Below are positions 3,493 through 47,100 of a stretch of DNA of 48,244 bases, piece by piece. Each line of letters starts with the position of its first letter. Position 1 is the first letter of the stretch. A program made the translations under genes and the position numbers. Under the pieces are notes generated by a model that saw nothing but the letters and a program-made list of their open reading frames with translations, was not told where the DNA came from and made no database searches. Source of the stretch: Elusimicrobia bacterium CG08_land_8_20_14_0_20_51_18 (lineage in GTDB: Bacteria > Elusimicrobiota > Elusimicrobia > Elusimicrobiales > UBA9959); the NCBI GenBank assembly GCA_002774685.1, contig PEXN01000105.1, positions 1-48,244 on the forward strand. Reading direction: 5' to 3'.

Positions 3493-3714
3493 AAAATCCT
3501 CAAAGCCGGAAATTGAGATTAAGATATTAACACATCAGGAGATTAAGGGCTTTACGCGCCATTCAGCCCCGGATTTAAACGCTTAACCCGAAAAATTCAG
3601 TTGTCCTCTTCGAGGACTATCCCCTCCACATGGGCTATGAGGAATGGGATGGGCGGCATTTCCGCTTATAAACCGCGAATTTTTTTGTCCCCGAATTTTT
3701 TGCCGTTTCACGGC

Positions 3715-3942
3715 GGCCACCCCGATAAAGGAGCAATCACGCTCCGCGTCCCACTCCCCGCAACGAAGTAGCCGCTCTTTACCCCACAAGTAGGGGCCGC
3801 TCTTTATGCGGTGCGGTAGCCCATATAGACGGGACAGCCCCGGAACAACGAGCCTCCGGCTCATCAGGTGTCGGCTTGCCCGCTGGGCGCAGCCAGGGAG
3901 GCTCTGACGACGACCTCTTGTATGGGGCGTATCGGGGTGGCC
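3715..3942. ncRNA. Unclassified structured element, copy 1 (paralogue of 38364-38574); strand unresolved
   Basis: A 13/13 Watson-Crick closing helix pairs 3715-3727 (GGCCACCCCGATA) with 3930-3942 (TATCGGGGTGGCC). An internal 8-bp helix pairs 3850-3857 with 3897-3904, and there are several short GC hairpins. Block 3747-3775 is 24/29 identical to 38413-38441. GC-rich hairpins continue in the flanks (about 3600-4045). ORFs called here are Arg/Gly/Pro-rich shadows. Confidence 0.45.
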
Positions 3943-4016
3943 GGGTTTTACCCTGCCACCCACTCAGCGGCTCAAAGCCGCTCCTTTCAGTATGACCAGG
4001 CGGCAGCCGCGGCGGT

Positions 4017-4041
4017 GAATCCTTCAGCAACTGAAGGATTC
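4017..4041. terminator. Perfect 11-bp hairpin (GAATCCTTCAG-CAA-CTGAAGGATTC), terminator-like
   Basis: Lies 58 nt downstream of the priA-like stop on the minus strand, with no U-tract on that strand. A T-rich tail (AGGTTAATTTCTCAATCTTTATTTT) follows on the plus strand, so it could instead end a plus-strand RNA covering 3600-4045. Confidence 0.35.
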
Positions 4042-4098
4042 AGGTTAATTTCTCAATCTTTATTTTCCGAATCTCTTGCTCCATATATTTTATATTTT

Positions 4099-6105: not shown

Positions 6106-7017
6106 TTAGGCATTATTTTTTTCGAGGAAAGACTTCAGCATTTTCATGTCTTCCCAGGCGTCCTTTTTCAGGTTGGGATTCCTGAGCAGGGCCGCCGGAT
6201 GATAAGTGGGAAGGATTTTAAGATCGAAATCGAAAGTAAAGCTGTAGGGAACGTCGTACATTTTACCCCTTAGCTGGCTGATGCCTTTGGTCTCGTTAAG
6301 CATGAACTTTGTGGCCACGTTCCCGAGAGTCACCACGCAGAGGGGCCTTATGAGCCTTATCTGTTCCTCGAGGTAACCGCGGCAGGCGGAGATTTCGGCC
6401 GGAGTCGGGGGCCTGTCGTTCCCGCGCGCCTCCGGGGTTTCCGGATTCGTCATGGGGTGGCACTTGACTATATTGGCGATATAAACGCTCTGCCTGGAGA
6501 GATTTATGGCGGCGAGGATTTTATCCAGGAGCTGGCCGGACCGGCCGACGAAAGGTTCGCCGCGATGATCTTCGTCGTAGCCGGGACCTTCGCCCACGAA
6601 CATCACCCTGGCCTTGGGGTCTCCCACGCCGAAAACCGGATTCAGTCTGGAAAGCCCGAGAAGGCATTTCCTGCATCTAAGAACTTCTTCCCTCAAGGTG
6701 CCCAGGAGATCGGAGCCCGCCGCCGTTTTTTTCCCTTTGCGCGGCCCGGGAACAGACTCCGACGGGACACAGGCGGACGAAACCGTGACGACAACCGCAG
6801 CCTTTTCCGGTTCCGGTCCGGAGACGCGCATTTCAGCCGCAGACGCCTTTGTCTGCAACCGGGCCCGCGCGGCCGTCTGCGGATTCCCACCGGCAACATG
6901 AGGCTTGCGACCTGCGACCTGCGGCATCCCGCCTGCAGGCGGGATATACGTATCTTCGTCAAGATTCTTTATGTATTTAACGAGCTCGCCCCTTATTTTC
7001 TTGATCTCATTTTTCAT
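6106..7017 (-). CDS. Uracil-DNA glycosylase, family 4, with about 130-aa low-complexity N-terminal extension
   Basis: Family-4 signature GEGPGYDEDHRGEPFVGRSGQLLD and C-terminal HPAALLRNP. The start is uncertain; an internal ATG at 6925-6927 is possible. Confidence 0.85.
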   Translation of the reverse strand: MKNEIKKIRGELVKYIKNLDEDTYIPPAGGMPQVAGRKPHVAGGNPQTAARARLQTKASAAEMRVSGPEPEKAAVVVTVSSACVPSESVPGPRKGKKTAAGSDLLGTLREEVLRCRKCLLGLSRLNPVFGVGDPKARVMFVGEGPGYDEDHRGEPFVGRSGQLLDKILAAINLSRQSVYIANIVKCHPMTNPETPEARGNDRPPTPAEISACRGYLEEQIRLIRPLCVVTLGNVATKFMLNETKGISQLRGKMYDVPYSFTFDFDLKILPTYHPAALLRNPNLKKDAWEDMKMLKSFLEKNNA

Positions 7018-7330
7018 CTTTGGTCTTTTCTTTCTTTTTAAGCTTGTCTTTCCTGGCGTCCTTTTTCTCGGAGATTCTTTCCATCTTTATCTGGTTGTCT
7101 TTCCCCACGGCCTCTTTTATCTCTTCCTCGGTCACTTTTTTGGAAACCACGTCCTTCAGGGCCACGTCTATTATTTCCGCCACCGGCTTAAGCCTGTATT
7201 CTTCCGTGAATTTCAGATGGGTCGCCCACAGCATGGCGAGAACCACGTCATTATATTTGGAAGGGCCGTAATCGGCTATAACGTTGTCCAGATTTATATT
7301 TTCTTCTTTTTCTTTTGCGGCTTTAGTCAT
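7007..7330 (-). CDS. rpoZ: DNA-directed RNA polymerase subunit omega (probable), Lys-rich C-terminal extension
   Basis: Small ORF directly downstream of gmk, which is the conserved gmk-rpoZ arrangement. It has an omega-like core (SKYNDVVLAMLWATHL). Confidence 0.6.
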   Translation of the reverse strand: MTKAAKEKEENINLDNVIADYGPSKYNDVVLAMLWATHLKFTEEYRLKPVAEIIDVALKDVVSKKVTEEEIKEAVGKDNQIKMERISEKKDARKDKLKKKEKTKDEK

Positions 7331-11598: not shown

Positions 11599-11648
11599 CC
11601 CTTTATTCTTTCATCCCTCATCCTTTATCCCCTATCCCTTATCCCTAT
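11599..11648 (-). repeat. Heptad array GGGATAA-type x6 on the transcribed strand
   Basis: The minus strand reads TAG GGATAAG GGATAGG GGATAAA GGATGAG GGATGAA AGAATAA AGGGA. It starts at the ptrB stop codon (11645-11647). Confidence 0.7.
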
Positions 11649-13744
11649 TTATCTATCCCTTCCAGCTTGAAGACGAAGGCGAAAATAAGCGCTTTTTCTT
11701 TCAGGTATTCGAAGCGTCCGGTCTTTCCGCCGTGGCCGGTGGACATATCCGTTTTCAGCAGCATCAGGCTTTTGCCCGTATTGAAATCCCTGAGCTTAGC
11801 GGTCCATTTGGTCGGCTCCCAGTACTGCACCTGGGAATCGTGGTAGCCGGAGGTTATCAGCATGTTCGGATAAGGTTTTTTCTCCACGTTGTCGTAGGGG
11901 GAGTAGGATTTCATGTAATCGTAATATTCCTTTACGTTCGGATTGCCCCATTCGTCGTATTCGCCGGTAGTAAGGGGGATGGAATCGTCCAGCATGGTGG
12001 TTATAACGTCCACGAAAGGGACCTGCGCTATTATCCCTTTATAAAGCTCGTTAGCCATGTTTGAAACAGCGCCTACCAGCAATCCTCCGGCGGAACCGCC
12101 GGCCGCATAAACGTGACCCGCGGAGCCGTAACCTTTTTCTATCAGGAACCTGGTCCCGTCTATGAAATCATTGAAGGTGTTTTTCTTGGCCAGCTGCCTG
12201 CCGTCCTCGTACCATTTCCTGCCTAAATCGCTGCCGCCGCGTATATGTATCCTGGCATAGGCGAACCCTCTGTCAAGCAGACTGAAAGTATTCGGGCCGA
12301 AATCGGCGTCAAGGCTGTAACCGTAGGAACCGTAGCCGTAAACGAAAAGTTTTTTGACGGAATTTTCGGGGAACTTCTTGTCGTAAACCAGAGTCACGGG
12401 GACCCTGGCGCCGTCCCTCGCCGCGAACCACAGCCTTTCCGTGGCGTACCTGGAGATATCATAACCCGGCACCTCGTCCCTTTTGAGAAGGGAGGATTTC
12501 CTGGTTTCAAGGTCGAAATCGTAAACCGAAGGAGGCGTCACCATGGATTCGTAATGATACCTGAAAACGCCGCTTTCATACTCCATATTTTCGCCGGGAT
12601 AGACCGCATAGGCCCGGTCCGGGAAATCGATATAAAAGCTTTCGCCGTTTTTCCTGTTTATCACCTTGAAACCGGCTAAAGCGTTCTTTCTTTCCTGAAC
12701 GATGAACCAATCCTTGAAAACCTCCATGGATTCTATAAGCGCTTCGGCGCTGTGCGGCAAGAAATCTTTCCAGTTTTTCACGTCCGTGTTTTCCCTGGAA
12801 ACGGAAGATACCTTGAAATTTTTCGCGTCCCTGTTGTGCAGGATGTAAAAGACGTCCCCGCCGTCCTCCACCGAATACTCGAGCCCCTTTTCCCGGGGAT
12901 AAAAAACCCTGAACACGGCGGAACCGCCTTCGGCCGAGGCGTAACGGACTTCGGTGAAAAGCGTGGTCTGGGAGTTCAGAAAAATATATTTGTCGGTAAT
13001 CGCCTTGGAAACGTAGAGCGAAAAGGTTTCGTCCGCTTCGTAATAGATCTCCTTGTCGGCTGCCGGCGAACCGAGCTCATGGGAAAGGAACCTGTCCCAA
13101 CGCAGGGTCCGGCTGTCCTGTTTTACGTAGAAAAGAGTCTTATTGTCGTTGGCCCAGGTCATATTGCCGGCCGTGTTCTCTATCTTTTCCTCCAGGGTCT
13201 TGCCCGTAACGAGGTCCTTGAAGTAAATCGTGTAAAATCTACGGCCGGTGAAATCGGCGCCGTAAGCTATCATCTTGTGATCCGGCCTTACCGAAGGGAA
13301 CCTTACGGAACAGAATTCCCGGCCCTTGGCCAATTCGTTCACGTTCAGTATGACTTCCTCTTTCCCGGCCGGGTCTTTTCTCATATAAAAAGGATACTCC
13401 AGCCCCGTCTCGTACCTTTTGTAATAATAGTAGTTACCGTATTTGAAAGGAACCGTCGAATCGTCTTCCTTTATCCTGCTCCTCATTTCGGCATAAAGCT
13501 TTTCCTGGAATTTTCCGGTATCCGCCATTACCTTGTCGGTGTACTCGTTTTCGGCCTTGAGATAGTCCAGCACGTCCTTCGTATCTCTTTCTTTCATCCA
13601 GAAATAGTCGTCCACCCGCACGTCCCCGTGCTTTTCGAGTTTATGCGGTATTTTTTTAGCTTCGGGCGGTTTTACCATATCTTCTCCTTTTAAGCCGAAC
13701 GGCAATAGCAAACAAAAAACGGTGAAACATATCTTGTTTTTCAC
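11645..13744 (-). CDS. ptrB: Oligopeptidase B / prolyl oligopeptidase family (S9A), secreted
   Basis: Beta-propeller plus alpha/beta hydrolase domain, with nucleophile elbow GGSAGG and C-terminal His in MSTGHGG. GTG start with GGGAGG 4 nt upstream. Signal-like N-terminus. Confidence 0.9.
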   Translation of the reverse strand: MKNKICFTVFCLLLPFGLKGEDMVKPPEAKKIPHKLEKHGDVRVDDYFWMKERDTKDVLDYLKAENEYTDKVMADTGKFQEKLYAEMRSRIKEDDSTVPFKYGNYYYYKRYETGLEYPFYMRKDPAGKEEVILNVNELAKGREFCSVRFPSVRPDHKMIAYGADFTGRRFYTIYFKDLVTGKTLEEKIENTAGNMTWANDNKTLFYVKQDSRTLRWDRFLSHELGSPAADKEIYYEADETFSLYVSKAITDKYIFLNSQTTLFTEVRYASAEGGSAVFRVFYPREKGLEYSVEDGGDVFYILHNRDAKNFKVSSVSRENTDVKNWKDFLPHSAEALIESMEVFKDWFIVQERKNALAGFKVINRKNGESFYIDFPDRAYAVYPGENMEYESGVFRYHYESMVTPPSVYDFDLETRKSSLLKRDEVPGYDISRYATERLWFAARDGARVPVTLVYDKKFPENSVKKLFVYGYGSYGYSLDADFGPNTFSLLDRGFAYARIHIRGGSDLGRKWYEDGRQLAKKNTFNDFIDGTRFLIEKGYGSAGHVYAAGGSAGGLLVGAVSNMANELYKGIIAQVPFVDVITTMLDDSIPLTTGEYDEWGNPNVKEYYDYMKSYSPYDNVEKKPYPNMLITSGYHDSQVQYWEPTKWTAKLRDFNTGKSLMLLKTDMSTGHGGKTGRFEYLKEKALIFAFVFKLEGIDK

Positions 13745-20679: not shown

Positions 20680-20686
20680 AAAAGAC

Positions 20687-20789
20687 TCCTTAATTAACGG
20701 CAGATCAAGATTAAGACTGAGTAAGTTTAGAGTTTAGAGTTCTCTAAACCACGTTGCTCTAAACTAAGTTGCTCTAAACTAAATTGCGG
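20687..20789 (-). repeat. Intergenic repeat family, copy A (short form; functional orientation is the minus strand, toward glnA)
   Basis: Shares CTCAGnCTTAATCTTGATCTGCCGTTAATyAAGGAG, CTCTAAACTCTAAAC and 15-nt units with copies B and C. It has three tandem 15-mers on the plus strand at 20742-20756, 20757-20771 and 20772-20786 (CTCTAAAC + 7 nt). Confidence 0.8.
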
Positions 20790-20863
20790 AAATTATATTT
20801 TAAGTATATCAAATTTTTCAGGCTTTTCAGGAACGGAGCACGAGTTAAAATAGCCCGTTTGGA

Positions 20864-20893
20864 TTGACTTTAAGGTGTGTTAAATTTTATAAT
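20864..20893 (+). promoter_or_regulatory. rpsO promoter TTGACT-N18-TATAAT
   Basis: -35 at 20864-20869 and -10 at 20888-20893, leaving a 5' UTR of about 45 nt before the ATG at 20943. Confidence 0.55.
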
Positions 20894-20942
20894 ATACTTA
20901 ACAATAGAAACATTAAAACCAAAAAAGAGAGTGTGAAAAACG

Positions 20943-21212
20943 ATGACAATGACAAAAGCAAAGAAAAAAGAAGTTATTGAGAAGGTTTCGGCCGGGCCGA
21001 ACGACACGGGCTCCAGCTCGTCGCAGGTAGCCCTGCTCACCGAAAGAATACAGTACCTTTCAAAACATCTTACCAACAACCCGAAAGATAACTCCTCCAA
21101 AAGGGGCCTTTCATTGCTCATTTCCAAGAGAAAGAGCCTTCTTTCTTACTTGGAAAGGACAAACAAAGAAGAATATCAGAAGCTGATAAAGCAATTAGGC
21201 TTAAGGAAATAA
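20943..21212 (+). CDS. rpsO: 30S ribosomal protein S15
   Basis: GSSSSQVALLTERIQYLSKHL... is the typical S15 sequence. 89 aa. Confidence 0.95.
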   Translation: MTMTKAKKKEVIEKVSAGPNDTGSSSSQVALLTERIQYLSKHLTNNPKDNSSKRGLSLLISKRKSLLSYLERTNKEEYQKLIKQLGLRK

Positions 21213-21218
21213 AAATAT

Positions 21219-23336
21219 ATGAAATCCAACAACTTAGTCCACTTCGAAGAGAAGGTGGGAAGAGACTTAATTTCGTTAGAAACCGGAGTACTCGCCAAAC
21301 AGGCGAACGGCGCCGTAGTCTTGAAACTCGGCGATAACGTCATACTGGCGGCCTGCACCCAGGCCGGCAAACCGAGGACGGCGCCTCCCGAATTCGTTCC
21401 CTTGACGGTCGAATACAAGGAAAGGACCTACGCGGCCGGAAAGATCCCGGGTGGCTTCTTCAAAAGGGAAGGCAAAGCCAGAGAAAAAGAAGTTATCTCG
21501 GCGAGGCTCACCGACAGGTCCATAAGGCCTCTTTTCCCGGAATATTACAACACCGAAACGCAGGTGGTGCTCATGGTGCTTTCCAGCGACGGCGCCATAG
21601 AACCCGGCGTCCTCGCCATAAACGCGGCCTCGGCGGCGCTCATGATCTCCGACATCCCCTTCAAAGGGCCCGTCAGCGCGGTCAGAATCGCCAAGGTCAA
21701 CGGGGAATACGTGATAAACCCGACTTTCGAGGAAAGGAAAACGGCGGAACTCGAACTCGTGGTCTCCGGAACCCTCGAAGGCGTGCTCATGGTCGAAGGC
21801 GGCGGAAAAGAGATCCCCAACGAAGAACTCATAAAGGCGATCGAAGCGGCCAAGATAGAGATAAACAAACTCTGCAAGGCCCAGGTAGAACTGGCCAAGC
21901 TGTCCAACAAGCCCAAAATAGAGGTGGTAAAACCCGAAATGAAATCGGAAATAGCCGAAGACCTGCAGGCCAATGCCAAGAAAGACATAGAAAAAGTTCT
22001 CAACGCCTTCCCGGACAAGAAAACCATGGAAGCGGGGCTTTCGGCCATCCAGGAAGCCATGATAAAGAAATACCAGGAGAAATACCCGGAAGACGCGACC
22101 ATAGCCTACCAGGTCAAAACCCTGATGAACGACGTCATCTACGACGTTTCCAGGGACATAGTCCTCAATAAGAAGGTCAGGACCGACGGCAGGAAATACG
22201 ACGAGATCAGGGCCATAAGCATCCAGACCGGCTATCTTCCCAGGACCCACGGCTCGGCCGTTTTTACCAGGGGCCAGACCCAGGCCATAGCGGCCACGAC
22301 CCTCGGCACCCAGGACGACCAGCAGATACTGGACGACCTGGAAGGCAGGAGCATGGACAGGTTCATGCTGCACTACAACTTCCCCGGTTTTTCCACCGGC
22401 GAAGTGAAGCCGGACAGAGGCCCCAGCAGAAGGGAAATAGGCCACGGACATCTCGCCAAGAGAGCCCTTTCTTACCTGCTTCCCGATGAGGCCGACTTCT
22501 CCTATACCATAAGGATAGTTTCCGACATCCTGGAATCCAACGGTTCCTCCTCCATGGCCACCGTCTGCGGCGGTTCGCTCTCATTGTTCGACGCCGGCGT
22601 GCCGATGAAAGGCGCCTGCTCGGGCATAGCGATGGGACTCATAACCGGCAAGAATAAACACGCCGTCCTTTCCGATATAGCCGGTCTCGAGGACCATTTC
22701 GGAGACATGGATTTCAAGCTCGCCGGTTCACGGAAAGGCATCACCGCCTTCCAGATGGACGTAAAGCTTGCCAGCGGCATTCCGATGGACATCCTTAAGG
22801 AAGCCATCGAACAGGCGGCGCGGGGAAGGAATCATATCCTGGACCTCATGGAAAAAGCGCTTCCCGCGCCAAAAACCGATCTTTCCGCTTACGCGCCCAA
22901 GATGGTGAAAGTGGCCATACCTAAAGACAAAATAGGCGCTTTCATCGGACCCGGCGGAAAAAACATAAAAGCCGTGATAGAGAAAACCCAGGCCAATATA
23001 GAAGTCAATGACGACGGCATGGTTTTCATTTCGAGCCCCGACCAGGCCAGCGTAGACATGGCGAAGAAGATAGTGGAGCAGTTCGCCATGGAAGTCGAAG
23101 TGGGCAAGGTTTACAAGGGCAAGGTCGTGAACATAGTGGAATTCGGAGCTTTCGTGGAAGTCCTTCCCGGAAAGGAAGGTCTGCTGCACATCTCCGAAGT
23201 CGACCTGAAGAGGATAAACAGAGTGGAAGATGTGCTGAAACTCGGAGACGAAATAGACGTAAAAGTGATAAACATGGAAAACTCCGGCAGGTTCAAGCTC
23301 TCCAGGAAAGTCCTCCTGCAGGCCAAGCGCGACTAA
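21219..23336 (+). CDS. pnp: Polyribonucleotide nucleotidyltransferase (PNPase)
   Basis: Two RNase PH domains, a KH domain (IGAFIGPGGKNIKAV) and an S1 domain (GKVVNIVEFGAFVEVLPGKEGLLHISE). It starts 6 nt after rpsO. Confidence 0.97.
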   Translation: MKSNNLVHFEEKVGRDLISLETGVLAKQANGAVVLKLGDNVILAACTQAGKPRTAPPEFVPLTVEYKERTYAAGKIPGGFFKREGKAREKEVISARLTDRSIRPLFPEYYNTETQVVLMVLSSDGAIEPGVLAINAASAALMISDIPFKGPVSAVRIAKVNGEYVINPTFEERKTAELELVVSGTLEGVLMVEGGGKEIPNEELIKAIEAAKIEINKLCKAQVELAKLSNKPKIEVVKPEMKSEIAEDLQANAKKDIEKVLNAFPDKKTMEAGLSAIQEAMIKKYQEKYPEDATIAYQVKTLMNDVIYDVSRDIVLNKKVRTDGRKYDEIRAISIQTGYLPRTHGSAVFTRGQTQAIAATTLGTQDDQQILDDLEGRSMDRFMLHYNFPGFSTGEVKPDRGPSRREIGHGHLAKRALSYLLPDEADFSYTIRIVSDILESNGSSSMATVCGGSLSLFDAGVPMKGACSGIAMGLITGKNKHAVLSDIAGLEDHFGDMDFKLAGSRKGITAFQMDVKLASGIPMDILKEAIEQAARGRNHILDLMEKALPAPKTDLSAYAPKMVKVAIPKDKIGAFIGPGGKNIKAVIEKTQANIEVNDDGMVFISSPDQASVDMAKKIVEQFAMEVEVGKVYKGKVVNIVEFGAFVEVLPGKEGLLHISEVDLKRINRVEDVLKLGDEIDVKVINMENSGRFKLSRKVLLQAKRD

Positions 23337-23340
23337 AAGC

Positions 23341-23502
23341 AGGTTAAGCGTTAGATTAAGGTTGAGAGAACAGTAATTTAGTTTAGAGTAATTTAGTTCA
23401 AAGTAATTTAGTTTGGAGCAACTTGGCAAAACAGCTCTAAACTCTAAACTTTAAACTCTAAACTTTCTCAGCCTTAATCTTGATCTGCCGTTAATCAAGG
23501 AG
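23341..23502 (+). repeat. Intergenic repeat family, copy B (long form; faces accB)
   Basis: The core 23381-23449 is the exact reverse complement of 24281-24349. It has three 15-nt direct units at 23373-23417 and CTCTAAAC at 23435, 23442 and 23456. It ends with the accB SD AAGGAG at 23497-23502. Confidence 0.9.
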
Positions 23503-23507
23503 ATCTT

Positions 23508-23999
23508 ATGAAAAAAACCAAGAATCCGAACGGACCCGCCGCCTTAAACGACGTAAAGAAATTTTACGATTTCATGACTTCCAACAAGCTGGAAGTCCTT
23601 GAATTTTCCCAGGGGGAAACTTACATAAAGCTGGTAAGGAAGAACGCCCAGCCGATAAACGCACACCCCATCCCCGTTTTTACCAGCAACATGCCCGCCA
23701 TGCAGATCCCCCAGAGAGGCCAGCAGGGCGGCGTACAGCAGGCTCCCCAGGCTCCGGCCGGCGAGACGATAAAATCGCCGATGTCAGGAATCTTTTACCG
23801 GGCGCCGAGCCCGTCGAGCCCGCCCTATGTCCGGGAGGGCGACACCGTAAAGCGGGGTCAGGTGCTCTGCATAGTGGAAGCCATGAAAGTTTTCAACGAG
23901 ACAAAGGCGGATTTCGACTTCAAGGTGCTCAAAGTCCTGGTGGAAAACGGCAAGGCCCTGACGCTTAATCAGGATATCTTTCTGATAGAGAGGATCTGA
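23508..23999 (+). CDS. accB: Biotin carboxyl carrier protein (biotinyl-domain protein)
   Basis: C-terminal biotinyl domain with CIVEAMKVFNE (the EAMK biotinylation motif), a Pro/Ala/Gln linker and a BCCP-like N-domain. No accC is adjacent. Confidence 0.85.
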   Translation: MKKTKNPNGPAALNDVKKFYDFMTSNKLEVLEFSQGETYIKLVRKNAQPINAHPIPVFTSNMPAMQIPQRGQQGGVQQAPQAPAGETIKSPMSGIFYRAPSPSSPPYVREGDTVKRGQVLCIVEAMKVFNETKADFDFKVLKVLVENGKALTLNQDIFLIERI

Positions 24000-24214
24000 T
24001 GCAGGAAAATTTTTCCGAAGTCGTGTCGCAAAACGCCGAAAAAATAATCGGCCTCCTGAAGAACGCGCCGGCGGCCAATTCCTGGGACATAAAACTCAAG
24101 CTGAAACTCTCCAGCTCCAATCTTTATCTGGCGCTCGGCTACCTTATCTCGGCAAATAAAATAACGATTTTTCCGGACGACCTCAATTACAAAATAAAAC
24201 TGAACCAGGAATAA
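23999..24214 (+). CDS. Small winged-helix protein (DUF2582-like)
   Basis: 71 aa with a TGATG overlap with accB. The segment NSWDIKLKLKLSSSNLYLALGYLISANKI resembles the DUF2582 wHTH family. Confidence 0.5.
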   Translation: MQENFSEVVSQNAEKIIGLLKNAPAANSWDIKLKLKLSSSNLYLALGYLISANKITIFPDDLNYKIKLNQE

Positions 24215-24248
24215 ATCCGGGGCGCCGTGAGAAGTTGTCCCAGCCGGG

Positions 24249-24411
24249 TTAACGGCAAATTAAGACTGGGATACAGGAAAGTTTAGAGTTTAGAGCTGTT
24301 TTGCCAAGTTGCTCCAAACTAAATTACTTTGAACTAAATTACTCTAAACCAAGTTGCTCTAAACTGAATTACTGTTTTCTCAACCTTAAGCTAATCCGTC
24401 GCTTAATCTGC
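24249..24411 (-). repeat. Intergenic repeat family, copy C (long form; inverted relative to B, same orientation as A)
   Basis: The core 24281-24349 is the reverse complement of 23381-23449 (69/69). The flanks are imperfect, and the terminal leader/SD segment is degenerate (CTTAATTTGCCGTTAACCC). Confidence 0.9.
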
Positions 24412-34680: not shown

Positions 34681-34718
34681 CCTTGTTTATCCCTTATCCC
34701 TAATCCTTTATCCCTTAA
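34681..34718 (-). repeat. Heptad array GGGATAA-type on the transcribed strand
   Basis: The minus strand reads GTTAAGG GATAAAG GATTAGG GATAAGG GATAAAC AAGG, starting 3 nt after the DUF4159 stop. Same motif family as 11599-11648. Confidence 0.7.
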
Positions 34719-37487: not shown

Positions 37488-38363
37488 TCATGTCCGCCGC
37501 CCTTCCGTGAGCCGCCTCAGCGAACTGACATCTCCCTCTTCCGAAACCCGGAAATAACGCGTATTCTGCAGGGAAAAAGCGGCGCGGCACTCGCTCAGCC
37601 ACTTTTCATGTTTTTCTTCGAGGATCTTCCTGAAACCGGAATATTCAAAGGCCAGTTCCTCTCCCGTTTCCGCGTCGGAGAGAAGGACTTCCCCGGCGGA
37701 ACTTATTATTTTACCGAGGTCCTTCTCGAAAAAATGAAAGACCGTCTTTTCCCTGGGATTCGCGGCCAGGACGGCCGCCAGCGCCCTGAGTTTTTCCCGG
37801 GGAAAAAAAAGGTCCGAAAAGAAGGCCATTCTGCAGTTCTTCCCCGTTTCGGCGGCCTTGCCGGCGAAAGTTTCCACTTCGAAATTCCCGCCGGAAAATT
37901 CCGCCGAAGAAAAAAACTCGTCGAGAATTATCAGTTTTTCGAAACCGCGGAGAGAGGGGCTGGAAACCGTTTTTTTCTCCCGCAGCAGGTGGAGGTTCAG
38001 CTTTTCTCCCCTTAAAAGCAGTATCCCGCAGGCGTAAAGGGCGAATTTCACGAAAAGCCGGGAATATTCCCCGGAAAAACCCATGGAAGCCGAAGCGTCG
38101 AAAAAAATTTCCCAGCCCGTACGTCTTTCCTGAAGAAAATCCTTGACATAGAGCCTCTCGTTCCTGGCATAGGCTTTCCAGTCTATAAACCGGGAGCCTT
38201 CTCCGGCATTGTGGCTGCGGTGTCCGGCGAATTCCGAATCGGGAGTCCTGGAAGAAATATTGCCCAGGTTCATTCCGCCGGCTTCTCCGCCGCGGCTGAA
38301 ACCCTGCCTGCTGCCCGCCAGATTTTTTATTTTTTTTATATCTTCGTCGTCGAGATATTTCAT
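37488..38363 (-). CDS. DUF58 family protein
   Basis: Signature ...GEGSRFIDWKAYARNERLYVKDF... typical of DUF58 proteins that follow MoxR ATPases. Confidence 0.85.
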   Translation of the reverse strand: MKYLDDEDIKKIKNLAGSRQGFSRGGEAGGMNLGNISSRTPDSEFAGHRSHNAGEGSRFIDWKAYARNERLYVKDFLQERRTGWEIFFDASASMGFSGEYSRLFVKFALYACGILLLRGEKLNLHLLREKKTVSSPSLRGFEKLIILDEFFSSAEFSGGNFEVETFAGKAAETGKNCRMAFFSDLFFPREKLRALAAVLAANPREKTVFHFFEKDLGKIISSAGEVLLSDAETGEELAFEYSGFRKILEEKHEKWLSECRAAFSLQNTRYFRVSEEGDVSSLRRLTEGRRT

Positions 38364-38574
38364 CCGGCCACCCGCTTATCCCGACACCCGCTCAGGGCAT
38401 AAAGCCCGTTTTCGTCCCGCTCCTCACAGCGAAGCAGCCGCTTTATGCGGTAGCCCGAACAGAAGGGACAGTCCCTTCCCCTTATTCCATAAGGAAGAGA
38501 GACGGGCAAGCGGGTGTCGGGATTATCAGTCTTTAAAATATCGTGCCGCTTTATGCGGCAAGCGGGTGGCAGGA
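38364..38574. ncRNA. Unclassified structured element, copy 2 (paralogue of 3715-3942); fills the whole TPR/DUF58 spacer
   Basis: Nested helices pair 38366-38377 with 38560-38570 and 38378-38392 with 38509-38523 (15/15). Hairpins sit at 38395-38407, 38434-38454, 38480-38494 and 38545-38559. CACCCGCT and AGCGGGTG are each duplicated, which allows alternative pairing. Confidence 0.5.
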
Positions 38575-39642
38575 TCATTTTCCGGAACCCGCCCGCCTTA
38601 CGAGATGAGCGAGCTTTTCTCCGGCCGGTCCGTATCCGAGGTCCGCGCTTTTTTTCCAGTCCTTCAGGGCTTCCTTTACCCGGCCTTCCTGAAAATTTAT
38701 TCTGCCGCGAAGATCGTAAAGAAGGGGGAGGTCGGCCCCGGTTTTTGCCATGGCCAGCTCGGCGTATTCGAGAGCCTCTTTCTGCCTGTTAAGCCTGTAA
38801 AGCTGTTTTGAAAGAAAATACGCGTCATAGGAGGAAATTTCCTTTCCCCGGAGCGCGGCCGCTTTTCCCATATCCTCGCAAGCCCCGGAATAATCCCCGA
38901 GCTCTTCCAGAAAAAAAGCCCTTTCTTCCAGGTAATCCGCGGTTTCCGGCGACGCCGAAACCGCCCTGGAAACGCAATATATCGCGTTTGAACGCAAACC
39001 CGCTCCTTTATAGGCCTTGTACAGGCCGAACCATATCTCGGGATTTTCCGGATACCTGAGCAGGGCCTTTTTCAGGTCGGAAACGGCCTCCGGGTATTTT
39101 CCCAGTCCGGTGAGGAGCCCTGCTCTTTCCGGGAGCAGAGAATAATCCGACGGATCTATCTTTACCGCGCTGTTCAGGTCGGCCAGGGCTTTTTCCTCCC
39201 GCCCCGTTTCCGCGTAAGCGCGCGCCCTCATGAAATAAGCTTCGGTGTCGAACGGGTCGAGGCTCAGCGATTTGGAGGCGTAAAAGATCTCTCCCTCGTA
39301 ATCTTTCAGATATTCGCCCAGGATGAAAGCTTTCAGGTTATACGAAGCTGCTTCCGGGTAACCGAGCTTTATGCTTTTTTCCAACTCTTCAAGAGCCCGC
39401 TCATAAAGCCCCTGATTCTTCAGGGCCATCGCCTTAAGATAGAACAGGTAGCCGTTCCCGCCGTGCCCAGGCAGGGATTTTTCTATAAGCTTAAGCGCTT
39501 CTTCGTTCCTGTCTTCCCTTAAAAAATCTCCGACCACGGCGATATCCGGAGCGTCAAGCAGGTCCCCGCAAACATGATAAAAAAAATAGGAAACGGAAAA
39601 AAGGGAAAAAAGCGTCAATATCGCGAGGGGAATTCTTTTCAT
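38575..39642 (-). CDS. TPR-repeat protein, membrane-anchored or secreted
   Basis: Multiple TPR repeats. The start is set at the ATG 39640-39642 (MKRIPLAILTLFSLFS...), which overlaps the moxR stop as ATGA. The ORF-track N-terminal 67 codons are a shadow inside moxR. Confidence 0.8.
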   Translation of the reverse strand: MKRIPLAILTLFSLFSVSYFFYHVCGDLLDAPDIAVVGDFLREDRNEEALKLIEKSLPGHGGNGYLFYLKAMALKNQGLYERALEELEKSIKLGYPEAASYNLKAFILGEYLKDYEGEIFYASKSLSLDPFDTEAYFMRARAYAETGREEKALADLNSAVKIDPSDYSLLPERAGLLTGLGKYPEAVSDLKKALLRYPENPEIWFGLYKAYKGAGLRSNAIYCVSRAVSASPETADYLEERAFFLEELGDYSGACEDMGKAAALRGKEISSYDAYFLSKQLYRLNRQKEALEYAELAMAKTGADLPLLYDLRGRINFQEGRVKEALKDWKKSADLGYGPAGEKLAHLVRRAGSGK

Positions 39643-44138: not shown

Positions 44139-47100
44139 GTGAAAAAAAACATATCCAACTCGATTTTCGCCCTGATAATGACGCTTACCATACTGGCGCT
44201 CTATTTTCAGGGAGCGGTAATAGAGAACATAGAGCTTAAATTTTACGATTTCTACTCCTCCATAAAAGCCCCTTCTTCCACCAGCAACGACATAACGCTT
44301 ATCGAGATAAACGACGAAAGTCTCGCTAAAGTCGGCAGGTGGCCATGGGAAAGGTCCAAAATAGCGGAAATGATAACCTGGCTGAATTCCCAGAACGCGA
44401 AACCCGCCATAATAGGCCTCAATATCCTTTTTTCCGAGCCGGAGAACAATAAATCCAAACAGGTGGCCGACCGGATAGAGGCGAGGTACAAGGAACTGGT
44501 CGCCCAGAAAAAAATAAGGGAAATATCGAAGGACTCCGAATTCCTGGCCACCGTGGACGGTCTTAAAAAGGACCTGGACAACGATTTAAAACTGCAGATA
44601 GCGATCAGCACGGGCGGTAACGTGGTTCTGCCTATGTTTTTCGAATTAAGCGAAATAAATTCCAAGCCCAGGGAAGAACCGGAATATTTCAAGTCCATGG
44701 CCATCACTCTCAACCAGAATTCCCCGGAAGAAATGCGGGATGAAGCCTCCGGCCTGACGCTCCCGATAGACTCCCTGGGCTCCGGCGCCAGGGCGGTGGG
44801 ACACACCAACGTCGTGAACGACATCGACGGCTCCCTTAGAAGGCATAACCCTTTCCTGGAATACAACGGCAGCGTCTATCCTTCCTTCCCCGTACAGATA
44901 GCGAATCTCTACGCCGGCAAGGAATCCAGGGACCTCGTCCTTAAATCCGGAGAAAATTTCAGAATAGGGAAGAACACTATCGCCCTGGACACCGACTCCT
45001 CCATGCATCTCTCTTACAGCAAGGGCGGAAAAACCTTCAGGTCCTATTCTTTCTACGACGTCATAAACAACAAGATAGTCCCGGAAGCTTTCAACAACAA
45101 GGTAGTGCTGATAGGGCTTACGGCTCACGGTTACGTAACCACCTACGTCACGCCGGTGGAAAAGAGCATGACCAACCTGGAGCAGTCGGCCAATGTCATA
45201 GACAACCTCATGAAAGGCGATTTCATCCACGTCCCGCAATGGGCCGCTATGGCGGAAATTTCCGCCATAGCGGCGGTGGGCCTGTTCGCCATAATAGCGC
45301 TGCCTTTTCTGAAAGCCGCCATGGGCGCCATAGTCTCCATACTCATACTTCTCCTGCTGATGGGAACCTCCTCCTATCTTTTCATTTACAAGGGCATGTG
45401 GATAAAAATGACCTACCCTTCAGCGCTGCTTATCGCTTCGTATATTTTTATAGTTTCCAAGAGATTTTTCTCCACCGAAAAGAAAAAAGAGCTCATAGAA
45501 GTTTCCCAGATAGAAACCAACAAGATGCTCGGCCTTTCCTTCCAGGGCCAGGGCATGCTGGACCTGGCTTTCGAGAAGTTCAGGCTCTGCCCGGTGGACG
45601 ACAATATGAAGGAACTGCTCTACAATTTGGGCCTGGATTTCGAGAGGAAAAGGCAGTTTAACAAGGCGAAAGCCGTTTACGAACACGTATCCGAAAAAGA
45701 TCCCGGCTACAAAGACCTTAAGGAAAAAATAGAAAACCTGACTAAAGCCGCCGACGGCGGAGTATTCGCGAGCCCGGCCGGAAAAAACAAGGAAAGCACC
45801 ATTTTGGTCTCAGGCTCGAGCGCCACTCCCACGCTGGGCCGCTACGAAGTCATGAAAGAGCTGGGGAAAGGCGCCATGGGCATAGTCTACCTGGGCAAAG
45901 ACCCGAAGATCAACAGGACGGTGGCCATAAAAACGATGCGTTTCGAGGAAGGGTTGGAAGAAAAGGAAATGAAAGCCCTGAAAGAAAGATTTTTCCGGGA
46001 AGCGCAGGCGGCGGGAAATCTTTCCCATCCCAATATAGTCAAGATCTTCGACGCCGGCGAGGACCAGGACATAGCTTATATGGCCATGGAACTTCTTAAG
46101 GGCGAAGACCTCAAAAAATACACCCGGAAGGAAAACATCCTGCCTCGGGAAAAGGCCCTGCTCTACACCTACCAATCCGCGCTGGCGCTGGATTACGCCC
46201 ACAAGAACGGGGTGGTGCACCGCGACATAAAACCGGCCAATATAATGCTTCTCGAAGACGGCTCGCTGCGCGTAACCGACTTCGGCATAGCCAGAATACA
46301 GGAATCCTCCAAAACCGCCACCGGGACCGTGATGGGAACTCCCTACTACATGAGCCCGGAACAGATACAGGGCAAGAAAGTGGACGGCCGGGCGGACCTT
46401 TTCTCGCTCGGAGTAACCATGTACGAACTGCTCACCTGCGAAAGACCCTGGAAAGGCGGCGAATCCGTGGCCACCCTTTTCTATCAGATAACAAGCGAGC
46501 CCTATCCGGATCCCAGGGAATACGACAAGAGCCTGAGCGAGCCGATAATAAGGATAATCGACAAGGCCCTGAAAAAAAATCCGGACGAAAGATATCAGAA
46601 CGGGGCCGAAATGGCGGAGGACATAAAAGCCGTCATGGACGACAAGTCCGGCGGACAAACCTCCGCCGCCCCGGCTGCCGCCGCTAAAAACCCGGCCCCG
46701 AAACCGGCGGCAAATCCGGCTCCGGCGCCGGCCCCGAAGCCGGCACCGGCTACAACCGCTAAAACCCCGGCCCCTCAGCCGGCGACCAAACCGGCTCCAG
46801 CGCCGGTCCCGAAACCGGCCCCGGCTATGCCCGCTAAAACCCCGCTCCCTCAGCCGGCGGCCAAGGCGGCCCCGGCTCCCGCTCCGGCGCCGAAACCGGC
46901 TCCCAGACCGCGGCCCGCGGCTCTGGATCTAGGCGGAATAACGGTGGAAAAAGAGCCCAAGGCGGCTATGCAGCTTAAACCGGCCGAGCTTTCGCTTCAG
47001 CCCGGCGGACCGAAAAAGGAACCGGTCAAAGAAACGCCCAAATCGGACCCTATAGTGAAAGACAGCCTGCAGCTCCCTATTTCGGAAACGCTTAACCAAA

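Follow-up and report, generated by a model that had tools for sequence, protein, structure and literature searches.

Several families of small bacterial repeats bear comparison with the element described here. MIRUs are units of 40–100 bp, Correia elements duplicate TA and RPEs insert within coding sequence. REPs are 20–40 nt long with a conserved GTAG head, are found in hundreds of copies and are not known to be linked to start codons, and REPINs are strand-specific single-stranded hairpins that are mobilized by a Y1 (RAYT) transposase. As summarized in a published account (PMC12548453), MIRUs are apparently mobile short repeats of mycobacteria that lie at start codons and intercistronic junctions (Supply et al. 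1997). The same account has the ends of the MIRU ORF overlapping the flanking stop and start codons with a spacing of -4, an arrangement that is thought to keep translational coupling and so to neutralize the insertion (PMC12548453). RPEs and other repeats fuse in-frame with host ORFs, and the frames stay open (PMC3184786). The upstream repeats of Neisseria (REP2) and Borrelia are found immediately upstream of genes, with their own ribosome-binding site and start codon and with internal stem-loops (PMC3184786).

Our study revealed that the 211-nt gap between the TPR and DUF58 genes of a Bat-like operon (38364–38574) is filled entirely by a palindromic element, referred to here as copy A; positions are those of the window, which is the whole stretch of 48,244 nt that was analysed. 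The operon runs from a promoter-like site (40895–40867) through MoxR, TPR, the element, DUF58, a BatA/VWA-like gene and DUF4159 to a GATase1-like gene, and the proteins adjoining the element are held at NCBI as PIS47075.1 and PIS47074.1, from the MAG of an uncultivated "Elusimicrobia bacterium", whose locus tags have the form COT17_*. The MoxR/TPR junction of the same operon, which is free of the element, is a plain ATGAAAAG overlap. We consider it probable that the segment is a nested palindromic MITE/BIME-like insertion at the TPR/DUF58 ATGA overlap, in which translational coupling has been kept by way of a pass-through ORF (Table 1).

Table 1. Features of copy A in the window, and the places in which its relatives were found
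Feature	Location	Strand	Description
Pass-through ORF, 72 codons	38360..38578	-	MILPPACRIK...DKRVAG, then stop; covers the whole element
ORF start	38578-38576	-	ATG, overlapping the TPR stop TGA 38577-38575 (ATGA)
ORF end	38362-38360	-	TGA, overlapping the DUF58 ATG 38363-38361 (ATGA)
Upstream ATGA	38575..38578	-	TPR stop and ORF start; copy one of a putative target-site duplication (TGA/ATGA)
Downstream ATGA	38360..38363	-	ORF stop and DUF58 start; copy two of the putative duplication
Outer arm beside hairpin	38560..38574	-	TCCTGCCACCCGCTT; C-rich, anti-SD-like; pairs with 38363-38377
Shell hairpin	38545..38559	-	GCCGC-AUAAA-GCGGC
AT-rich shell spacer	38524..38544	-	ACGATATTTTAAAGACTGATA; aligns with the spacers of G, D, C and F
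Inner inverted repeat, 5' arm on gene strand	38509..38523	-	ATCCCGACACCCGCT; 15/15 pairs
Inner inverted repeat, 3' arm	38378..38392	-	AGCGGGTGTCGGGAT
Cargo X, ~89 nt	38414..38502	-	Centre of copy A
Most conserved cargo part	38437..38475	-	GGGACTGTCCCnTCTnTnnGGGyTACCGCATAAAG(AG)CGGC
Outer 3' arm	38363..38377	-	AAGCGGGTGGCCGGA; last A is the A of the DUF58 AUG
SD-like purine run in outer 3' arm of copy A			AAGCGGGU; 6 nt before the DUF58 AUG
Copy B	3715..3942	-	Shell-less; between priA and tyrS; X and an extra ~80-nt module
Solitary shell half	3950..3985	+	CCCTGCCACCCACTC and hairpin AGCGGC-TCAAA-GCCGCT; adjoins copy B; nhmmer E = 2.8e-8
Copy C	L016-L018		Between a DUF58/VWA gene and the gene after it in a second MoxR operon; overlaps of 4 nt at either side
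Copy D	L019		Adjoins the ATG of an unannotated gene that lies downstream of a 300-aa ORF
Copies F and G	L022		Each directly before a gene; TATAAT-like box just upstream of the 5' ATG
Copy E	L024/L025		X without shell

The element is built in two tiers, with outer 15-nt inverted repeats that come with a hairpin and an AT-rich spacer and, inside these, 15-nt inverted repeats around a variable cargo. A 15-nt arm, a hairpin of 5–6 bp whose loop is rich in A, ~20 nt of AT-rich spacer and a second arm complementary to the first make up the shell, and the inner repeats and their cargo are placed between the spacer and the second arm. In copy A the outer helix (38560–38574/38363–38377) comprises 14 Watson–Crick pairs and one mismatch, and across all of the shelled copies (A, C, D, F and G) the outer arms are 15–16 nt long, with 12–14 Watson–Crick pairs and, in addition, G.T pairs. 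The terminal repeats are TCCNGNCACCC-type ends. In the other copies, too, the 3' arm brings an SD-like run at a 6-nt spacing (GGAGAGG in F, GGAAAGG in C and AAGGGGGU in G), to which the 5' arm is complementary. The stem of the shell hairpin co-varies, reading GCCCGC/GCGGGC in D and GGCGGC/GCCGCC in C and F, and 34 of its 34 cells across six copies are Watson–Crick; the inner arms also co-vary (ATCCCACCACCTATT/AATAGGTGGTGAGGAT in D and ATCCAGACACCCGAA/TTCGGGTGTCTGGAT in F). Compensatory arm changes of this kind between copies would also be expected of a selected RNA structure.

Much of this pairing had been described in an earlier note on this DNA, and all of the helices listed there are present where it had placed them. 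Direct reading bore out its outer helix, in which 38366–38377 (GGCCACCCGCTT) is complementary to 38560–38570 (AAGCGGGTGGC), and its inner helix, in which 38378–38392 (ATCCCGACACCCGCT) is complementary to 38509–38523 (AGCGGGTGTCGGGAT) at 15 of 15 positions, and the GC hairpins were found at 38395–38407, 38480–38494 and 38545–38559. The two occurrences each of CACCCGCT and AGCGGGTG to which it had drawn attention are also present, and are duplicated in copy A because the outer and inner arms chance to be similar there. The two arms are alike in A and F only, and are unrelated sequences in C, D and G.

Cargo X was identified in copies A, C and D, lying inverted to the shell in D, and also in B, B' and E, which have no shell. 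Copy G has the shell and the inner repeats but lacks X, its cargo being a small hairpin only, and in copy F two unrelated hairpins take the place of X. With respect to the shell, the cargo of A faces in one direction and that of C, D and G in the opposite one; with respect to the host gene, the shell faces in one direction in A, D and G and is reversed in C and F. Between variable flanks, ~45 nt of X hardly change across A, B, B', C, D and E. No covariation was detected inside X (covariation term +0.52), which carries no covariation information because its sequence barely varies. A conserved centre of ~45 nt is unusual for a MITE.

Relatives were sought using the 72-aa translation as a mismatch-tolerant proxy for the DNA, by pattern scanning of metagenomes and by local blastn and nhmmer searches on the contigs retrieved. 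At least seven related loci were found, together with an eighth as a peptide only (P0010), which was the one further copy revealed by an exhaustive profile search; all of these are from the same few metagenomes and from one lineage. The source metagenomes are JGI 3300025021, 3300004238/9 and 3300005235/6 and ENA ERZ272933xx. Two weaker profile matches, P0011 and P0014, look by inspection like translations of unrelated repeat arrays. A scan of metagenome contigs with CTGTCCCNNCTNTNNGGGNTACCGC found four true loci, although this pattern was too strict, missing copy E by one base and not returning copy A. The corresponding scan of genome contigs with GGTAGCCCNNNNAGANGGGACAG gave nine matches, none resembling the element, of which at least six fall in one conserved coding motif that is gatB-like by inspection. 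No match to the element was found in the viral contig, phage and plasmid collections. A generic scan of ~90 kb for insertions of the form ATGA-palindrome-TGA returned only A, D, F and G and one probable chance match. Several contigs stop within or beside an element, a pattern that fits a repeat at which assemblies break.

The six metagenome contigs with the locus of copy A all have the same sequence for the element, and orientation at single loci was uniform, with agreement among the six contigs for A and the three for C. Copy D has a good SD, AAAGAGG, 7 nt ahead of its upstream ATG. The earlier note had taken 3715–3942, our copy B, for a second copy of the element, and this was correct for the ~95-nt centre, which is common to both, but not for the outer helices, which are absent from copy B. 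Its extra module is bounded by CGGCCACCCCGATA/TATCGGGGTGGCCG, and B and E have a module beyond X in common. B' (L023) is an ortholog of B that shows a compensatory change in the bounding helix, and the ortholog of B in L022 is without its 3' part and stays with priA, not tyrS. A hammerhead reading of the CUGAUGAG module in B and E was rejected, as it is without GAAA and without stem III. A T-box reading of B upstream of tyrS was likewise discarded, given that there was no Rfam match and that B keeps with priA in L022, and resemblances to 6S, SRP and RNase P RNA were not confirmed.

These copies resemble a MITE family in that they occupy at least seven dispersed loci, on separate contigs from a single population or genus, are 129–228 nt in length, contain internal ORFs that belong to no family and, in A, C, D, F and G, possess terminal inverted repeats. 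The earlier note had reasoned that near-identical copies at random sites, with target-site duplications, would mark the segment as a plain MITE. This was true in part, since copies exist at no fewer than seven loci and five of them have TGA/ATGA repeats, but the copies are not near-identical, their sites are non-random and their arms show compensatory change.

The 211-nt segment was found to be strongly structured on both strands as RNA, as had been proposed for the spacer that fills the TPR–DUF58 gap. The MFE was -108.9 kcal/mol for the plus strand (z -8.69, with 0 of 200 shuffles as good) and -113.6 kcal/mol for the minus strand (z -7.92, dinucleotide-preserving shuffles), and the gene strand as ssDNA gave -63.5 kcal/mol (z -8.66, shuffle test). 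A two-tier fold is common to all five shelled copies, with z values of -6 to -12. On the gene strand of copy A the DUF58 initiation region is buried, in agreement with the earlier description, as the SD-like run and the AUG are both paired with a probability of ~1.

The strongest regularity among the shelled copies concerns their flanks and reading frame. All five are flanked by ATGA ... (A/G)TGA. In each of them the start codon of the following gene shares bases with the 3' TGA, and every reconstructed empty site (5/5) reads ATGAA. The MIRU-like overlap is ATGA on both sides in A and C, and (A/G)TGA with the downstream start in D, F and G. A TGA/ATGA direct repeat is present at each of the five, and the palindromic ends overlap it, with one extra base in D; because the repeat ends (ATG-ATCC...GGAT-GA) overlap the flanks, the duplication could be of 2, 3 or 4 bp. 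The ATG-to-TGA lengths of the five copies (219, 228, 225, 153 and 129 nt) are all multiples of 3, and frame 0 is the sole open frame in each, with a P(open) of 0.04–0.22 per copy under dinucleotide shuffling (0.04 for copy A). The joint P for openness and phase is ~2e-8 if the copies are independent, a value that overstates the significance because the copies share ancestry. When the elements were flipped in silico, the open frame was kept in copy A only (1/5). The peptides differ entirely in D, F and G, with D reading a different frame and an inverted cargo, and the codon differences between A and C, judged by eye from aligned codons, are mostly non-synonymous. As the peptides are unconserved while the frames stay open, the conserved property is openness and phase, and not a protein. 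The open frame through the element probably serves the translation of the downstream gene.

We therefore envisage that a small non-autonomous nested palindromic repeat may have entered the ATGA stop/start overlap between TPR and DUF58 in a MoxR-TPR-DUF58-BatA-like operon, and that its insertion may have duplicated TGA (or ATGA), so that the TPR stop codon and the DUF58 ATG would both have been retained. As neither an empty allele nor an ortholog was found when DUF58 homologues were searched for an empty site at E<=1e-30, which returned the protein itself only, we infer the insertion and the duplication from the flanks. In the mRNA, the element would form a two-tier hairpin of ~-118 kcal/mol, the outer helix of which would bring the first codons past the upstream ATG into pairing with the SD-like run that the element supplies and with the start codon of DUF58. 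DUF58 expression would be rescued because the element is, in effect, "translation-transparent". A ribosome ending TPR at its UGA would re-initiate at the overlapping AUG, read the 72 codons straight through the structure, melting the hairpin as it went, and terminate at the UGA that overlaps the DUF58 AUG, whereupon the same ribosome, or a new one on the exposed SD, would start DUF58.

The outer arms also carry a signal of strandedness. We define the element's own strand as that on which the hairpin-proximal arm is 5', and on this strand the outer arms contain 11 G.T cells (~8 independent events) and 0 A.C cells. The own strand coincides with the gene (mRNA) strand in A, D and G but is antisense to the gene in C and F, and it has the lower MFE in four of the five shelled copies. 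The G.T asymmetry follows the element and not the host gene, which implies that the structure is preserved on the strand of the element itself. This argues against a riboregulator of the host gene and favours an element-autonomous single-stranded stage, whether an ssDNA intermediate or an element transcript. DDE transposases of the IS5/Harbinger type would be compatible with a 3-bp TNA duplication; unlike such a duplication, the strand-asymmetric G.T pairs suggest a single-stranded stage in mobilization. A mobilizing enzyme is presumed, although no RAYT gene was found among the 10 ORFs screened in the 48-kb window and no transposase with matching ends was seen, ~8 loci being known. It is rather unlikely that the element is an undescribed selfish two-tier carrier and not an IS-derived MITE. 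Such a carrier would home to ATGAA, bring its own SD and pass-through ORF, propagate through a single-stranded form and shuttle or invert the conserved ~45-nt functional module X, which is free-standing in B and E.

A role at the level of the transcript is unlikely. In this reading the element would be a REP/BIME-like intercistronic palindrome that acts chiefly on the transcript and not on translation, by blocking 3'-5' exonucleases, by being processed by RNase III/E or by terminating in part and so setting the TPR:DUF58 expression ratio, with an open frame that is incidental or weakly selected. For this, the intercistronic site, the palindromic mosaic in alternating orientation and the solitary half-unit beside copy B would be fitting. 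However, the in-phase open frame, seen in 5/5 copies versus 1/5 when flipped, is hard to call incidental, and copies F, G and D are at the 5' ends of genes and not between cistrons. The shell hairpin with its U-rich spacer did score as weakly terminator-like, but the U-run is set apart from the hairpin stem. Helices that are perfect over 15/15 bp would be RNase III substrates, and Correia and ERIC elements offer a precedent for long helices in this capacity.

Centre X invites a reading of its own, as a functional ncRNA or ssDNA module (a small RNA, a ribozyme or a protein-binding site) that is free-standing in B and E and has been captured, or is carried as inverton-like cargo, in A, C and D. 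This we regard as quite unlikely. The near-invariance of X between variable flanks, its shell-free state in B and E, the variation in cargo orientation between copies across perfect 15-bp repeats and the compensatory change in the closing helix between B and B' would all suit such a module. Set against these are the lack of covariation within X and of any Rfam match, the lack of orientation polymorphism at any single locus (with agreement among six A contigs and among three C contigs) and the ortholog of B in L022, from which the 3' part is missing.

The earlier note had interpreted the segment as a regulatory switch with mutually exclusive pairing registers, and this interpretation did not survive. 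In copy A the nested fold has an energy of -118.0 kcal/mol. In the alternative registers an outer arm pairs with the inner arm of the opposite side (5' outer with 3' inner, or 5' inner with 3' outer); their energies are -84.3 and -82.8 kcal/mol, so that each is ~34 kcal/mol worse, and a pseudoknot would be needed for both together. Register swapping is impossible in C, D and G, where the arms of the two tiers are of unrelated sequence. Two comparable conformers conserved in homologues, as in a riboswitch, were consequently not found, and neither was an association with one gene family in one orientation. Copies are found ahead of DUF58 and of unrelated genes, behind another DUF58 and in the gap that separates priA from tyrS, and their presence before unrelated genes in either orientation does not fit a ligand- or gene-specific riboregulator. 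No gathering-level match was obtained from Rfam 15, which covers riboswitches, T-box, 6S, SRP, RNase P, tmRNA and ribozymes, for the window or for L018, L019, L022, L023 and L025. At E<=10 the element and 3650–4010 returned noise, the best score being 16.8 bits versus a 44-bit cut-off; this check, run on both strands, upheld the earlier opinion that no known RNA family is involved. The reading of the 211-nt segment as a riboswitch or switch is not supported and was rejected. More broadly, we view a dedicated cis-regulatory RNA of the Bat-like operon (riboswitch, thermosensor or attenuator) that toggles registers at the DUF58 start as very unlikely. Such an RNA could account for the very stable fold that buries the SD and AUG, for arms that differ between copies in a compensatory manner and for the adjacency of A and C to DUF58 genes of two different MoxR operons, but not for a cargo that is inverted or absent in some copies, nor for a G.T asymmetry that tracks the element and leaves C and F with A.C mismatches on the mRNA strand.

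Finally, it is highly improbable that the 72-codon ORF is a genuine small protein of the Bat-like operon, for although gene callers predict it on every contig (6/6 of the metagenome contigs with the locus) and it has perfect 4-nt overlaps at both ends, a Pfam search gave no family, its homologues in the databases are other copies of the element only, its peptide is wholly changed in D, F and G and mostly non-synonymously substituted between A and C by inspection, and its sequence is that of a palindrome that recurs at unrelated loci.

If the insertion reading is true, the strategy inferred for mycobacterial MIRUs, in which a repeat enters at a start codon with an ORF that passes ribosomes to the host gene, would have arisen independently in a deep-branching uncultivated phylum, in an entirely different, palindromic and nested architecture. 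The locus would then provide a natural test-bed for termination-reinitiation and for the helicase activity of the ribosome across a hairpin of -118 kcal/mol. It would also serve as a warning for annotation, as every metagenome assembly has "genes" of 40–75 codons called from these elements, and the elements could be used as a marker for assembly breaks and for strain typing in this lineage. A false riboswitch candidate has, in addition, been removed from the Bat/MoxR operon.

In comparison with known systems, the leader-peptide attenuators of ermC and cat and the riboswitches that sequester an SD likewise have an upstream ORF and a hairpin that hides the SD or AUG and is opened by translation. 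However, those systems are gene-specific, short (8–20 codons) and responsive to a signal, whereas the present element precedes unrelated genes, is found in both orientations and is without a second stable conformer. The Neisseria REP2 and Borrelia repeats are similar in that a repeat directly before a gene supplies the ribosome-binding site, but those repeats include a promoter and join their own ATG to the gene, whereas the pass-through ORF of the element ends on the start codon of the gene. REPs, BIMEs and REPINs share with it the character of extragenic palindromes between the genes of operons, with mosaics in alternating orientation, and mobilization in the manner of REPINs would fit the G.T asymmetry of the element's own strand.

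Closer in form are the Correia/NEMIS elements of Neisseria, the ERIC and YPAL elements of enterobacteria and the RPEs of Rickettsia, which are co-transcribed bacterial MITEs that fold into long hairpins. The element resembles these in its terminal inverted repeats, its short flanking direct repeat, its size within 100–250 bp, the absence of a transposase gene, its location inside transcription units and a reading frame that stays open. It differs from Correia elements and RPEs in having a TGA/ATGA repeat at a start codon, its own SD, compensatory arms and a second tier with cargo.

The likeness to MIRUs lies in the placement. Like MIRUs as summarized in the account cited above, the element carries an ORF that is co-oriented with the flanking genes and overlaps their stop and start codons. 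MIRUs are direct, often tandem and actinobacterial, and are not reported as long nested palindromes, whereas the element is a single unit per site with a two-tier inverted repeat and an orientation-free variable cargo, in an Elusimicrobia host; sequence kinship between the two is not expected. Taken together, the best reading is that the element is a small palindromic mobile repeat that combines a MIRU-like start-codon placement with a coupling ORF.

Contig ends in the metagenome were repeatedly seen to fall in an element or at most ~120 nt away from it. These ends are an assembly-break signature, which suggests that the true copy number of the element is above the number recovered. The contexts of individual copies varied. 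Copy E, a shell-less copy, was flanked on both sides by a 24-nt direct repeat, AGATTTGAGGGTTGGAAGGTTGG, which is far longer than the TGA repeat found around the shelled copies. Copy A, which lies between the TPR and DUF58 genes of the Bat-like operon, was spanned in its entirety by an opposite-strand ORF of 200 codons, and it was the only copy whose frame would stay both open and in phase after insertion in reverse. The shelled copies F and G each had a TATAAT-like box only 8-9 nt 5' of the upstream ATG. Leaderless translation is therefore possible, and leaderless mRNAs may be the templates for the F and G host genes and now also for their pass-through ORFs.

Positions of the features described (window coordinates unless a metagenome contig is named)
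Feature	Position	Detail
Element at or near a contig end, L004	1-29	
Element at or near a contig end, L016	1362-1589	of 1641
Element at or near a contig end, L019	79-330	
Element at or near a contig end, L024	36-308	
Element at or near a contig end, L025	120-420	
Direct repeat flanking copy E	L025 93-116 and 381-404	
Regions with the TATAAT-like boxes of F and G	L022 5262-5290 (minus strand); 7000-7023	
ORF spanning copy A	38209-38811	+
priA-tyrS gap	3493-4098	600 nt; holds copy B
Terminator-like hairpin	~3600-3625	
Extra module, copy B	3840-3905	
Extra module, copy E	L025 170-235	
Region with the tandem-repeat arrays and inverted repeats	20686-24394	
Inverted repeat pair	23372-23452 / 24278-24358	96%
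Inverted repeat pair	20686-20741 / 23447-23502	93%
pnp	21219-23336	
Biotin-lipoyl carrier gene	23508-23999	
75-nt tandem units	46668-46892	75-81% identical
Pyrimidine-rich repeat	11612-11661; 34688-34716	

Other repeats were also observed in the window. Three consecutive intergenic regions carried arrays of a 15-nt, TTGCTCTAAACTAAG-like tandem repeat together with long inverted repeats, and these bracketed pnp and the biotin-lipoyl carrier gene. They are a family distinct from the element of copy A, and may represent operator arrays or, alternatively, an invertible segment. Two intergenic regions shared a short pyrimidine-rich repeat, TATCCCTTATCCCT..., and one of these regions lies immediately downstream of the DUF4159 gene of the Bat-like operon. 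Within a 1033-aa CHASE2/Ser-Thr kinase ORF, three tandem units coded for a Pro/Ala-rich repeat.

Copy B, also shell-less, was set apart from tyrS by a terminator-like hairpin (GTCCTCGAAGAGGAC followed by a T-run), and no T-box was detected in the priA-tyrS gap. In a relative (contig L022) B and its hairpin likewise followed priA, but the next gene was different and B had lost its 3' part. Copies B and E shared an extra module, GAGGTCGTC...GACACYTGATGAGCCGGAGGCTCGTTGTTCCGGGGCTG. Neither GAAA nor stem III was present in this module, and a hammerhead identity was therefore ruled out; the CUGAUGAG motif that it includes is box C- or hammerhead-like.
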